Shown here: in pieces, positions 44,971-48,448 of the stretch
Position numbering within the stretch: position 1 is the stretch's first letter
Layout of the letters: each line of letters begins with the position of its first letter
Virus record (IMG/VR): IMGVR_UViG_3300044678_002996
Span: 17,301-81,300 of that record
Strand: one strand, 5' to 3'
DNA length: 64,000 bases
From: a virus
Taxonomy: Duplodnaviria > Heunggongvirae > Uroviricota > Caudoviricetes
Translations under genes and position numbers: made by a program
Notes under the pieces: generated by a model
Told to the model about the DNA's origin: nothing
The model's input: only the letters and a program-made list of their open reading frames with translations
Databases searched by the model: none

Positions 44971-45353
44971 TTCTGTTCTTCCCCCACGATTCTGTATAGG
45001 TCAACAGATTCTTCTCCGCCGAAGAATCTTACGTATTTACCAATTTTTGTGTAAACTTCAACTTTTGTTCCGGCTGGAATATTACGCCCGAACTCATTTG
45101 AAAGAGAAACAATTTGTAAATCTTCCTCTTTTTCTACGGTGATAAATGGAACACCAGCAGCAGAGACTTCAACGGGTGATACACCTTTGCTTATTTCAAT
45201 TGTCTTTTCCCTTAAAAGAAAGGGGAAAAAGATCAATGCGAGTGGAATCAATGTCCACTTCACACGGGAGTTATCATATGACTCCATCGCTGAGAAAAAT
45301 GTACAAGCTGTAACACCAATAAACACAAGTACCCATACAAATATTGGAATCAT
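44967..45353 (-). CDS. membrane-anchored hypothetical protein
   Basis: N-terminal TM helix MIPIFVWVLVFIGVTA, 4-nt overlap coupling. Confidence 0.4.
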   Translation of the reverse strand: MIPIFVWVLVFIGVTACTFFSAMESYDNSRVKWTLIPLALIFFPFLLREKTIEISKGVSPVEVSAAGVPFITVEKEEDLQIVSLSNEFGRNIPAGTKVEVYTKIGKYVRFFGGEESVDLYRIVGEEQK

Positions 45354-46951
45354 TCTAATCTCCCCCTTATTTCGCCCAAAGTAGTTTTGTTAAACTGCAC
45401 GCCATTTTCAAACATAACTTTCAACTCACCACCAAGTTCTTCCTCAGGTGTGCAATCATTCTTAAGGGTTAGTTTTCCACCCTTATCTTTGACTACAGCA
45501 AGCAAGCCCTTCGCAGATTTTTTATGGCCACCTGTTTTAGGATCTTTGAAGATAGGCTTAGCCTTCCCATCAATTTCCACATAGGTAGCCTTACAGGCGA
45601 TACTGAAAGTATCACGAGTATTGTACTGGTATGTGTAAGATCCCACGCCGAATACTACGTTTGTGGATGCGAAACCCTTGTGTTTCAACCGATCACAAAT
45701 TTGTTCACATCGAGTGAAAGTAATACTGTCACCATAAATTAGCCCAATATGTGGATCTAATTCAAGATACCCCTTTGAGTTTTTGGTCGCCCCAAAGGTT
45801 TCAGCAAGGATCTGAATAGAGCCCTTCACTTCATCCTCAGTAAGTTCTTGACAGGTTATATCAAAATACTTATTATCTGATGTTTTAACAGCGTCGAAGG
45901 TCTCGGTGCCGTCGTTATTCCACAACTTAATATGGAACGGAGTTCTTCTTACCAACTGAAGATAATCGTCAGAGGTTTGTTTTACATTCTTAACAATGTA
46001 CCCAGTCACAATCTTAACTGGGTCACCGCTGTCGGGCCGAATTACGACCTTACCATTACGGGCCATAATCTTAGATTTAAGGGCCGGTAAGATTTTCTTA
46101 AGGACGTTCCAGTAATCCCATGTATCACTTACGATGGACACAATACCCGCAGGATACACATCCTCAATAATTCTGCGGAATGTTTCTTCTTCTGATTCAT
46201 CCCCACCCGCACACATTACACTGTGTTCAGTAGCTGGTACACTACATCCCACCAATTCTTCGTCGATATTCGCCCCGTAGAATTCCTCAAGGAACTCAAT
46301 AGCTGAGACTGTATCCGTCCCGACGAAACTTAGTAGGTGGGCTGCCCCACTAACGTATCCAGTTTCAACGCTACTCATTCCCCGCATGGAGAAGTCGTGG
46401 CACTGGAAATTAACAAACGGGCAGTTGTCGGAAGTCTCAGCGGCGTACTTGGATACCAACTTCTTAAACTGATGGGCGATAGTGGCTGACACGATAGCTT
46501 GCCACATTACCGTCTGAGTCAAGGTTTCGAGGAAGTTCGTGACCCAATAGAATTCATGCTTTGTGTTCACGATTGTCATGAACGGCACTTGAATTGGGCA
46601 CAATGTTCCTTCGGGCAAAGCCTTCAGGCGAATTGGCAAGTAGCCCAAATCGTGCAGACTTTCCATAGTCTTTGTGCTTACTGAGTCTTTGCCAGTAACA
46701 GCGTCCATCATTCGCTTGAATTTTGCAACAACCTTCTCTTTCGGCTGAGAGAAGAACCGCTCATTCCAGTTACGAATGAAGTATTCCTCAACCAGATATT
46801 GCGTGCCGAACACTACGATTGAATCCACGCCTTCCATTCGCGACGAGCGAGCGGTAGTATTGGAATACACCACTTGCGTCTTTGCAGGGTATTGTGGCGG
46901 GTGAGAGAACTTGTATACGTCGGCGAGTAGTTGTGGACTTGGTTTGAACAT
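45350..46951 (-). CDS. nadV: nicotinamide phosphoribosyltransferase (NAMPT/NadV)
   Basis: N-terminal ADVYKFSHPPQYP matches the NAMPT DSYKxTHxxQYP block. 533 aa, typical NadV length. Confidence 0.75.
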   Translation of the reverse strand: MFKPSPQLLADVYKFSHPPQYPAKTQVVYSNTTARSSRMEGVDSIVVFGTQYLVEEYFIRNWNERFFSQPKEKVVAKFKRMMDAVTGKDSVSTKTMESLHDLGYLPIRLKALPEGTLCPIQVPFMTIVNTKHEFYWVTNFLETLTQTVMWQAIVSATIAHQFKKLVSKYAAETSDNCPFVNFQCHDFSMRGMSSVETGYVSGAAHLLSFVGTDTVSAIEFLEEFYGANIDEELVGCSVPATEHSVMCAGGDESEEETFRRIIEDVYPAGIVSIVSDTWDYWNVLKKILPALKSKIMARNGKVVIRPDSGDPVKIVTGYIVKNVKQTSDDYLQLVRRTPFHIKLWNNDGTETFDAVKTSDNKYFDITCQELTEDEVKGSIQILAETFGATKNSKGYLELDPHIGLIYGDSITFTRCEQICDRLKHKGFASTNVVFGVGSYTYQYNTRDTFSIACKATYVEIDGKAKPIFKDPKTGGHKKSAKGLLAVVKDKGGKLTLKNDCTPEEELGGELKVMFENGVQFNKTTLGEIRGRLE

Positions 46952-46960
46952 TTCAAATTC

Positions 46961-47440
46961 CTATGGATGAACGAGATGAACTTTGGTTACGAATGGTAGA
47001 AGGTTGGCTAACGCCCGTGGGCCGTTTTTAGCCTTTTCTTTGATTACTTCGGCCCCAACAGATTGAGGGCGACCTTTATCTCTTTCGATACAGAGATATT
47101 CATCCGCTGTGAATACTACTAACTCAATATCATAAAGAGGGTCAAAATTAACAGCAACTTGCGTGAAGATTTCGAGTGAGTATTTGTTGTTAATGCTACC
47201 TGTGTCGAACACTATGAGCTTACGCCCATCTTTTAGGGCCGCGAAGACCCGCTCCTTTGCCTCTTGCACAGCCCGCTTGTAGAATTCCCCATGTTTTTCA
47301 TGAGTATATCCCGGATAAGACTCCTTGATTTTATCGGCTGAGATGATGTATTCTTCATCATAATGCTCCTGAAGCCACGTACTTTTACCAGCCGCTGGTA
47401 AACCAAAGGTACAAACAAATTTAGCCATCGCACTTTCCAA
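46961..47440 (-). CDS. P-loop kinase (polynucleotide-kinase/AAA_33-like kinase domain)
   Basis: FGLPAAGKSTWLQEHYDEEYIISADKIK resembles the T4 Pnk kinase-domain N-terminus (GCPGSGKSTWA...NRDD). Confidence 0.45.
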   Translation of the reverse strand: MESAMAKFVCTFGLPAAGKSTWLQEHYDEEYIISADKIKESYPGYTHEKHGEFYKRAVQEAKERVFAALKDGRKLIVFDTGSINNKYSLEIFTQVAVNFDPLYDIELVVFTADEYLCIERDKGRPQSVGAEVIKEKAKNGPRALANLLPFVTKVHLVHP

Positions 47441-47690
47441 CTTCTATGAATTGTACTGTTGTGTAAGTTCTTGTGGGAATTACGATTTCTTTGCCGTCAA
47501 GTAGGAAGATCTCAGTGCCTTTGTCGCCCCAACCCATATACTCGGCCCCAAAGTATGAGAACGAGCGGTCTTGACAACAAGCCATGATATGCTTTACAAC
47601 GTGATCAGAAGTGTGGCAGATACATTTACATGGATAATTAGGATCCACATAGATTATATCATATCTGTGTTTTGTCTTTAGGTGTTCCAC
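47421..47690 (-). CDS. hypothetical Cys/His-rich small protein
   Basis: 89-aa ORF. Confidence 0.3.
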   Translation of the reverse strand: MEHLKTKHRYDIIYVDPNYPCKCICHTSDHVVKHIMACCQDRSFSYFGAEYMGWGDKGTEIFLLDGKEIVIPTRTYTTVQFIEVGKCDG

Positions 47691-48448
47691 ACCCGTCCCT
47701 TTCGAGTGTAAATCTGTTGGTAATGACCCAAAAGGGCCCCTAACCCTTGTGAGAATATTCCATGACTTACATAAAGGATCAGCTTATTGGGACCGCAGTG
47801 GGCGACTGCTTTCGCCACCTCGATGAATGTACGTCCTCCGTCGCACAGGTCGTCGCATACGAGAATGTTTTTCCCAAAAGGTATGTTGGGTACGATAGTC
47901 TCAAGAATATGTCCAGTAGCCTCGTCGCGTATTTTCTCTGCGACGATGAATTCTTTGGCGGACAATTGTGAGTATCTCGCCGCCGCCCCTTTGTCGGGCA
48001 ATAGCAGAAGGTCAATTCCCTCGCGTTCGACAATGTCCGCAATATTCTGTTGTGGCAGTGTGTTCACCAACTTAATATTGCGGTATTGGTCGAAGAACGC
48101 AGGATTGTGGACGTCGAACGTATGAAGTTCACATTTGCCCATCATCTCAGCAAAGAAATGTAGAGCCCAGCAAGATGTGTTTACAATACCTTTATCCTGC
48201 CTCGCGTAAGGAAGATATGGGACGTCCCAGATAACTAGCTGGTTGGCGGGTTCCTTTATCTTCATCCTTTCTACGAAGTAGAGCAGTTGGAAGATGTGCA
48301 GCAACTCATACTCGTCCTCAAATTCCCAGTGAATTCGCAGTACGTCTTCCTTAAAGGCATTTAGTAGCCCTTCGGGCTGTTTCCAGACTTGAGATGTCTT
48401 ATCTGGAAATCTTGTAACGTTCAGAGTAAATCCGTTTATATGTATCAT
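47678..48448 (-). CDS. type I phosphoribosyltransferase-fold protein, PRPP-synthetase-like (Prs/Adps-like)
   Basis: PRPP-binding loop ILVCDDLCDGGRTF. Length 256 aa. Adjacent to nadV. Confidence 0.55.
   Translation of the reverse strand: MIHINGFTLNVTRFPDKTSQVWKQPEGLLNAFKEDVLRIHWEFEDEYELLHIFQLLYFVERMKIKEPANQLVIWDVPYLPYARQDKGIVNTSCWALHFFAEMMGKCELHTFDVHNPAFFDQYRNIKLVNTLPQQNIADIVEREGIDLLLLPDKGAAARYSQLSAKEFIVAEKIRDEATGHILETIVPNIPFGKNILVCDDLCDGGRTFIEVAKAVAHCGPNKLILYVSHGIFSQGLGALLGHYQQIYTRKGRVWNT
47951..47969 (-). repeat. co-oriented motif copy TTTGGCGGACAATTGT
   Basis: Inside the Prs-like gene. Encodes QLSAKEF. Confidence 0.45.

Follow-up and report, generated by a model that had tools for sequence, protein, structure and literature searches.

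NARP1, the closest described system to the locus reported here, is a phage pathway of NAD+ reconstitution that was defined experimentally (10.1101/2024.02.11.579819). About 4% of sequenced phages carry it. We examined a stretch of 64,000 nucleotides (the window) from a virus record of the Caudoviricetes (IMG/VR record IMGVR_UViG_3300044678_002996, positions 17,301 to 81,300), which covers 64 kb of a contig of about 109 kb and leaves about 45 kb outside view. It contains a string of four genes, adps, an 89-amino-acid (aa) open reading frame (ORF89), a P-loop kinase gene and namat, that very probably represents a NARP1 operon of an uncultivated phage, with adps and namat as its core. A sequence-only reading of the window had proposed a phage NAD+ reconstitution cluster at this position, and homology, signature residues, clade membership and gene linkage now place its core genes in NARP1.

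From homology to the NARP1 systems of Bacillus phage SPbetaL1, E. coli phage Bas63 and mycobacteriophage DyoEdafos, we infer what the enzymes of the locus catalyse and that it acts against host defences. A host defence of the SIR2, TIR or SEFIR type would cleave NAD+, with ADP-ribose (ADPR) as one product and nicotinamide as the other. Adps would move pyrophosphate from ATP onto ADPR to give ADPR pyrophosphate (ADPR-PP), and Namat would swap the pyrophosphate of ADPR-PP for nicotinamide, which would yield NAD+ directly, in two steps in all. The sequence-only reading had noted the lack of a nicotinamide mononucleotide (NMN) adenylyltransferase, Nmnat, in the window and had raised the possibility of a variant pathway. 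The lack was confirmed: among 103 non-redundant window ORFs there was no CTP_transf_like match and no GxFxPxHxGH motif. Since Namat would regenerate NAD+ directly, no Nmnat is needed, and the "missing" enzyme is explained with no variant pathway required. The idea of a variant therefore does not hold for Nmnat; it holds only for the embedded kinase.

The locus has both enzyme families of the SPbetaL1 and Bas63 systems, arranged in the same order, and shares their catalytic core and clamp logic. It differs from them by the addition of ORF89 and the kinase between the core genes, and from SPbetaL1 also by an Adps of a divergent 'RQDK' subfamily and by a Namat with an insertion of about 55 aa. 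An accessory gene inserted between adps and namat is likewise seen in NARP1-AP (Adps-Adpp-Namat) of Vibrio phage Gary (10.64898/2026.01.28.702374), where the accessory, Adpp, is a Macro-domain ADPR-1''-phosphate (ADPR-1''P) phosphatase, whereas in the window a P-loop kinase and a small Cys-rich protein take this place. In DyoEdafos (10.64898/2026.05.28.727677), a small accessory gene, RyDEP, likewise follows adps and precedes namat, but ORF89 is unlike the RyDEP glycosidase. NARP2 (Nampt plus Nmnat, phage KVP40) and NARP3 (PnuC plus a NadR-like protein, phage Bas30; PMC13464706) serve the same purpose, NAD+ restoration against NAD-depleting defences. Unlike NARP2, the window has a transferase with the Namat clamp, and its 64 kb lack a detectable Nmnat. 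Neither PnuC nor a NadR-type NMNAT domain was found in the window, and no window ORF gave a Macro or RyR Pfam match. As these defining genes were not found in the window, the locus is not a NARP2, NARP3, NARP1-AP or RyDEP-extended form.

The probable Namat and Adps core

The 533-aa protein had been read as a clear NAMPT/NadV, and database names point the same way: Pfam matches were NAPRTase (1e-44) and NAMPT_N, and the PHROG name was nicotinamide/nicotinate phosphoribosyltransferase. Phage Nampt-like proteins that are paired with a Prs-like gene represent the Namat of NARP1 (10.1101/2024.02.11.579819; PMC12774641). A Namat is recognised by a Nampt-like catalytic core together with an adenine "selectivity clamp" (PMC12774641). 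The clamp consists of a helix (SCH) motif, GS-X-Phi1-X-Phi2-X-Phi3-TRD in which the X residues at positions 3 and 7 are aromatic, and a loop (SCL) that supplies a stacking Arg, Lys or Tyr (PMC12774641).

All these features were found in the window protein. Alignment showed that the catalytic core is kept (D11, Y13, F187, R190, D213, H243, R305 and D307; reference residues in SPbetaL1 Namat are D13, Y15, F189, R192, D215, the catalytic His, R306 and D308). The helix motif reads GSYTYQYNTRD, with Y439 and Y443 in the aromatic positions, an exact fit to the consensus; the same alignment columns in the NARP2-type Nampts of KP15 and VS1 read GGGLLQ. R38 aligned with the stacking R40 of SPbetaL1 Namat in the clamp loop. 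The best match in the PDB was SPbetaL1 Namat (9w5x/9w5w), at an E value of 9e-157, compared to about 1e-69 for human and bacterial Nampt. With the window protein, SPbetaL1 Namat shared 53% identity and NARP2-type Nampts shared 31-32%. Identities to phage homologues were bimodal: 36-53% for enzymes linked to a Prs-like (Adps) gene and about 31% for the NARP2 Nampts of T4-like phages. In a neighbour-joining (NJ) tree rooted on the KP15 Nampt, the window enzyme grouped with the Adps-associated Namats, apart from NARP2-type Nampt. Relative to SPbetaL1 Namat it carries the insertion of about 55 aa at residues 318-374, in a surface region; the same region holds variable insertions in the Magnus, EC6 and P7_Pc Namats, and Namats of Felixounavirus, Ackermannviridae and Certrevirus have unrelated insertions of 40-110 aa there. 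The predicted identity of the 533-aa protein is Namat, not Nampt, and the earlier name does not stand.

The 256-aa protein showed homology to type I phosphoribosyltransferases and Prs (Pfam Pribosyltran) and, as the sequence-only reading had reported, contains ILVCDDLCDGGRTF. It did not reach the NCBIfam cutoffs for housekeeping Prs, and all equivalog models scored far under cutoff. With the curated Prs model TIGR01251 (cutoff 113) the window protein scored 70 bits (69.9), known Adps 98-143 and E. coli Prs 423. Motifs common to the window protein and Namat-linked Adps were KxR[DN]xxTGxI, DDxCDGGRTF and THGIFS, for which the Prs counterparts are DKRRP-R, DDMIDTGGT and THPIFS. K172 of the window protein lies inside KxR[DN]xxTGxI and aligned with K162, the catalytic Lys in SPbetaL1 Adps.

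An exhaustive search of 1.8 billion representatives returned many short relatives (248 at E <= 1e-30), a large family with the trait Y[AG]RQDK. An NJ distance tree was then built from 35 sequences (255 columns, 200 bootstraps), with 11 Prs included, of which 8 were canonical and 3 were divergent paralogues. The window protein, its family and all known Adps formed one clade against the 11 Prs (0.99 bootstrap). This clade takes in the biochemically validated enzymes of SPbetaL1 and DyoEdafos; among validated enzymes, the DyoEdafos Adps stood nearest to the family of the window protein.

Gene context was surveyed in 80 IMG/VR viral loci fetched with a profile of the Adps family. A Namat homologue stood beside the Adps relative in 79 of the 80, and in 78 it lay downstream on the same strand. 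Adps upstream of namat is also the order in SPbetaL1, EC6, ICP1, Magnus, ctKR88 and DyoEdafos. The aromatic clamp was present in 72 of the 79 Namat homologues, and the exact motif of the window was its commonest form (28/79). The window itself has a Namat homologue in this position, with ORF89 and the kinase gene between adps and namat. Osterman et al. (10.1101/2024.02.11.579819) found a Namat within 10 genes for 97% of the Adps clade, and the linkage in 79/80 loci matches their operational definition of that clade. The 256-aa protein is thus a predicted Adps-type enzyme and not a housekeeping Prs; the suggestion that this short protein could be an ADPR-pyrophosphate-synthetase-like variant was upheld by both tree and context.

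The four genes lie on the same strand and are tightly packed. The overlap is 13 nt between adps and ORF89 and 8 nt between ORF89 and the kinase gene (ATGGCTAA), and a gap of 9 nt separates the kinase stop from the namat start. This arrangement points to one translationally coupled operon with co-expression of all four genes.

Several observations weigh against an assignment to NARP1. The Adps is divergent, with 24-29% identity to characterised phage Adps (24% to SPbetaL1) and 16% to E. coli Prs, and it reads RQDK for RQDR and DVHN for DPHS. Two profiles did not part Adps from Prs: phrog_619 gave 193 bits for E. coli Prs and 173 for the window protein, and a hidden Markov model (HMM) of 7 known Adps gave 143 bits for the window protein and 132 for E. 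coli Prs. The clade assignment therefore rests on the 35-sequence NJ tree together with gene context. Five Adps-clade relatives, L057-L059 among them, adjoin Nampt-like enzymes that lack the clamp (GGLLLQ[SQ]H[SN]RD), so coupling to a Namat that bears the clamp is not uniform across the Adps clade. Namats also keep some activity with phosphoribosyl pyrophosphate (PRPP), forming NMN, in vitro (PMC12774641; 10.1101/2024.02.11.579819). Finally, promoter and terminator consensus scans of the locus were at shuffle background, and the operon structure is thus deduced from the overlaps only.

The clamp-less pairings fall outside the NARP1/NARP2 dichotomy and may represent an intermediate, or an alternative way of pairing Adps/Prs with Nampt.

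A second explanation of the core is classical PRPP salvage, in which the Prs-like protein makes PRPP, the 'NadV' makes NMN and a host Nmnat, or an unseen one of the phage, finishes the reaction, as in a NARP2 without Nmnat. The Pfam, PHROG and NCBIfam names, which are those of Prs and Nampt, are in keeping with it, as is the in vitro formation of NMN by Namats, and a phage Nmnat could lie in the roughly 45 kb of the source contig outside the window. The adenine clamp of the 533-aa protein, absent in the KP15 and VS1 Nampts, and its clustering with Namats count against this route, as do the position of the Prs-like protein in the Adps clade far under the Prs cutoffs and the lack of an Nmnat in the window. 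In addition, the validated clade member SPbetaL1 Adps makes ADPR-PP from ADPR and ATP, reportedly with no Prs action, and no phage with both NARP1 and NARP2 was found by Osterman et al. For Bas63, anti-defence activity was shown to persist in a host without pncC and nadR. We consider PRPP salvage very improbable, and a predicted NARP1 core is retained below.

The embedded kinase

The Pnk-like P-loop kinase of the sequence-only reading, which had been given no role, was borne out by domain and fold. The protein matched Pfam AAA_33 (9e-11), the N-terminal half of PHROG 'polynucleotide kinase', and Pnk and Pnkp models in NCBIfam. All eight close homologues were 154-155 aa long, and the start is therefore most likely the ATG at 47428, which gives 155 aa. 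The sequence has the features of a P-loop 5'-kinase domain, with the Walker A motif GLPAAGKST (GxxxxGK[ST]) and IISAD; the Asp of '(I/V)SAD' corresponds to the general base of Pnk, and the lid Arg is also present. A structure model of moderate quality (pLDDT 72.6) gave as top Foldseek matches the kinase domains of Clostridium thermocellum Pnkp and T4 Pnk (TM 0.61-0.67), of which C. thermocellum was nearest (about 0.65). The window kinase thus shares the P-loop kinase fold, Walker A, general-base Asp and lid Arg with the T4 and C. thermocellum enzymes. It differs from them in its lack of a phosphatase, in DxGx[IV]N for DxTN, and in a NARP1 rather than an RNA ligase context.

A profile search showed the kinase to belong to a sharply defined Pnk-like P-loop subfamily of 32 clusters, with E values up to 1e-31 followed by a gap to 1e-18. 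DxGx[IV]N was present in 32/32 members and [IV][IV]SAD..[KR] in 28/32, compared to 1/88 outside the subfamily; classical Pnk relatives carry DxTN where the subfamily has DxGx[IV]N. Most members, at 150-183 aa, comprise the kinase alone. A small number carry a fused HAD domain (fusions of about 290-345 aa) that matches NT5C, not HAD_PNKP. NT5C is a mononucleotidase family. The 155-aa window kinase lacks a C-terminal HAD_PNKP 3'-phosphatase domain, a homologue of the fused HAD domain was not found in the window, and no similarity of the kinase to PhnN was detected with NCBIfam.

Gene contexts link the subfamily to NARP1. The four-gene layout is kept in close relatives, with kinases 79-88% identical to that of the window. 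The order Adps-kinase-Namat was seen in five further loci (kinase identity 34-48%) and, with kinase-HAD fusions, in L078 and L026, a total of 7 loci at 25-48% kinase identity. With other gene orders, the kinase is linked to Namats that bear the clamp in Lak-like megaphages, L107 and two contigs of about 400 kb (L100 and L158). Of 9 subfamily members sampled from outside the lineage of the window, 7 had a Namat within 5 kb; in 38 more distant Pnkp-like loci, no NARP1 gene was found within 8 kb. The usual position of the kinase is the slot between adps and namat, which is also the site of Adpp and RyDEP. A link between a kinase and NARP1 was not reported in the Adpp and RyDEP papers, nor was one found in a full-text literature search.

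Two further candidates for such a link were set aside and left uncounted. The gp80 kinase next to Namat in DyoEdafos belongs to another subfamily, being a classical AAA_33 plus HAD_PNKP protein, and has an RNA ligase in its vicinity. Kinase matches in Vibrio T4-like phages were ordinary pseT, which in D491s lies about 88 kb from Nampt.

Two results temper the contextual evidence. In trees the Namats of the window, L026 and L078 look related, and with related Namats and a possible shared ancestral operon the kinase loci are not all independent and stand for fewer independent events. Homing endonucleases of the HNH and LAGLIDADG types were also found in the slot between adps and namat; with selfish genes there, position in the slot alone is no proof of function. 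On balance we lean slightly towards a selected NARP1 accessory rather than a chance neighbour.

Some of the kinase-containing NARP1 loci have further features. In L157 (3020-4141), L159 (2161-3270) and the P0165 contig, an adenylosuccinate-synthetase-like gene (PurA/PurZ family, about 370 aa) lies directly upstream of adps, and sugar-nucleotide dehydrogenase and epimerase genes lie downstream in the same three. In L159 (3990-7826), an opposite-strand LAGLIDADG gene stands between adps and the kinase gene. The L159 Namat is split in two ORFs (239 and 289 aa) by a 203-aa opposite-strand insert, probably through mobile-element invasion.

Two functions were weighed for the kinase. As a polynucleotide 5'-kinase in RNA repair it would join the RNA ligase of the phage in countering anticodon or RNA nucleases of the host, and its linkage to NARP1 would reflect only counter-defence clustering and early co-expression. 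The closest folds, C. thermocellum Pnkp and T4 Pnk, agree with this, as do the PHROG and NCBIfam matches and the RNA ligase encoded in the window. In L160 a member of the kinase subfamily directly adjoins an RNA ligase of the same family as that of the window, L156 and L162 have HAD_SAK_2 'RNA-repair' phosphatases close by, and the kinase-HAD fusions resemble the Pnkp architecture. Pnk, HAD and ligase are the standard phage RNA-repair set (PMC7824862). The window kinase, however, has no phosphatase domain, and the classical DxTN motif of Pnk is replaced. The RNA ligase gene is 10 kb off, while the kinase gene overlaps or nearly abuts genes of the operon, and linkage to Namat was far commoner than linkage to RNA ligase in the sampled contexts. 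A role in RNA repair is possible, and we hold it tentatively.

The other function, compatible with a NARP1 core, is an extension of the pathway, in which the kinase would act on a small molecule derived from NAD and so broaden or mend what NARP1 takes in, for example by conversion of ADPR-1''P to ADPR-PP. This would accord with its place in the slot of Adpp and RyDEP and its apparent translational coupling to the neighbouring genes. The recurrence of the arrangement in 7 loci outside the lineage, the proximity to Namat in 7/9 members as opposed to none of the 38 Pnkp-like loci, DxGx[IV]N in place of DxTN and the NT5C-type rather than HAD_PNKP nature of the fused HAD domain also speak for it. 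A substrate is conceivable as well: aRES defences make ADPR-1P, which is unusable by Adps. The best structure and sequence matches, on the other hand, are polynucleotide kinases, which phosphorylate a 5'-OH and not phosphate groups, and similarity to PhnN was not seen. In the kinase-HAD fusions, it would be redundant for phosphatase and kinase both to act on the same ADPR-1''P; the homing endonucleases in the slot and the possible descent of the loci from one ancestral operon count against this function too. We regard it as rather unlikely, at somewhat less than the likelihood given to RNA repair.

In its most specific form, the extension would make the kinase a third class of NARP1 accessory after Adpp and RyDEP: an ADPR-1''P kinase that would turn the aRES product into ADPR-PP for Namat, while ORF89 would be a helper specific to the lineage or would inhibit a host factor. 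ADPR-1''P could also come from ring-opening of the dead-end by-product ADPR-cP. PhnN converts ribose-1,5-bisphosphate to PRPP, and the idea was put forward because that reaction is analogous; it comes from reasoning and not from the result of any tool. This full form is improbable.

Gene string, ORF89 and neighbouring genes

The window is densely packed, and 87 of its 103 non-redundant ORFs are on the minus strand. Phage-type functions encoded in it include ribonucleotide reductase, homing endonucleases, RNA ligase and glycosyltransferases. The locus had no megablast match among 50,697 phage records, and a near-identical relative is thus absent from that set. The three ORFs named in the sequence-only reading were found at the coordinates it gave on the minus strand, but the row comprises four genes, as ORF89 had been overlooked (Table 1).

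Table 1. Positions of the operon genes and of other genes discussed (window coordinates)
Feature	Coordinates	Strand	Product
adps	47678..48448	-	256 aa, Prs-like ADP-ribose pyrophosphokinase, NARP1 enzyme 1 (predicted)
ORF89	47421..47690	-	89 aa, Cys/His-rich, lineage-specific
P-loop kinase	46961..47428 (revised start; originally 46961..47440)	-	155 aa, kinase domain only
namat	45350..46951	-	533 aa, nicotinamide ADP-ribose transferase, NARP1 enzyme 2 (predicted)
Downstream ORF	44967..45353	-	128 aa, predicted membrane protein
NADAR-domain protein	58749..59204	-	151 aa, Pfam NADAR 1e-30, 10 kb from operon
RNA ligase	35409..36713	-	434 aa, Pfam RNA_ligase PF09414 6e-11

ORF89 is a real gene that is confined to the window's lineage. 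It was called as a gene of 87-88 aa in relatives, where a dN/dS of 0.09-0.22 indicated purifying selection, and it has the invariant pattern CxCxCH...H...CC...C. Homologues amounted to only 3 clusters in 5.8 billion proteins. No relatives were found in 126 viral loci by HMM or Cys-pattern search, and there was no match in Pfam, in PHROG or in the phage database. Its structure model was of low confidence (pLDDT 61.7 overall and below 50 in the Cys-rich part). Homology to RyDEP or RyR was considered and rejected (BLASTP E = 11; no RyR Pfam match).

The namat stop overlaps the 128-aa downstream ORF by 4 nt, and this predicted membrane protein gene is probably co-transcribed with namat. It had no family matches in Pfam or PHROG. 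As a conserved fifth gene of the operon it was rejected: homologues occur in some close relatives (L013/L014), and L011/L012 and the distant loci are without it.

The NADAR gene that the sequence-only reading had placed at 58749 was identified as such by Pfam, and NADAR proved to be a recurrent neighbour of NARP1 elsewhere. NADAR homologues lie directly after Namat in the IMG/VR loci L024, L051, L052 and L092, and between adps and namat in L071/L072; in L100 and L158 they are close to the kinase-Namat pair. This suggests that NADAR is another frequent companion of NARP1 in unrelated viral contigs. In the window, an HNH endonuclease gene (58342-58746, minus strand; PHROG and Pfam HNH) directly follows the NADAR gene.

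The 434-aa RNA ligase has its RNA_ligase domain in the C-terminal half, preceded by an unannotated N-terminal region of about 190 aa. A standalone 188-aa AAA_28 P-loop protein is encoded at 8700..9266 on the minus strand (Pfam 9e-11), with no attached NMNAT and no PnuC nearby. The AAA_28 family includes the ribosylnicotinamide-kinase domain of NadR. The protein is not a NARP3 and could be a second NAD-related kinase.

At 39734-41560 (minus strand), a ThiF/E1-like gene (223 aa, 2e-25) adjoins a weak Prok-JAB match (381 aa, 1e-4) among unannotated ORFs, a pair that resembles ubiquitin-like conjugation/deconjugation modules. Ribonucleotide reductase large and small subunit genes lie at 4973-8242 (minus strand); LAGLIDADG domains in the same third of the window may mark either a free-standing homing endonuclease or an intein in this region. 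At 12195-17587, plus-strand ORFs form a block that breaks the run of minus-strand genes and coincides with a change in GC-skew sign at 12-18 kb, and glycosyltransferase matches fall within the first third of the window (1-22911).

Meaning for phage NAD+ metabolism

The core of the locus is a divergent new member of the already-described NARP1, as predicted here; what is new is the kinase-containing architecture. The case of the window shows that the database names of these enzymes, Prs and NadV, mislead.

Adpp and RyDEP, whose genes occupy the same slot, channel non-canonical NAD+ breakdown products into NARP1. Should the kinase feed NARP1, the NAD+ arms race would gain a further layer and a small-molecule kinase activity would be new. 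If it is an ADPR-1''P kinase, it would give phages a phosphatase-independent bypass of RES-type NAD+ phosphorylases. If instead it is an RNA-repair kinase, its tight linkage suggests that phages combine in one package their counters against loss of NAD+ and against RNA cleavage. Either outcome would better the annotation of several hundred metagenomic phage loci.

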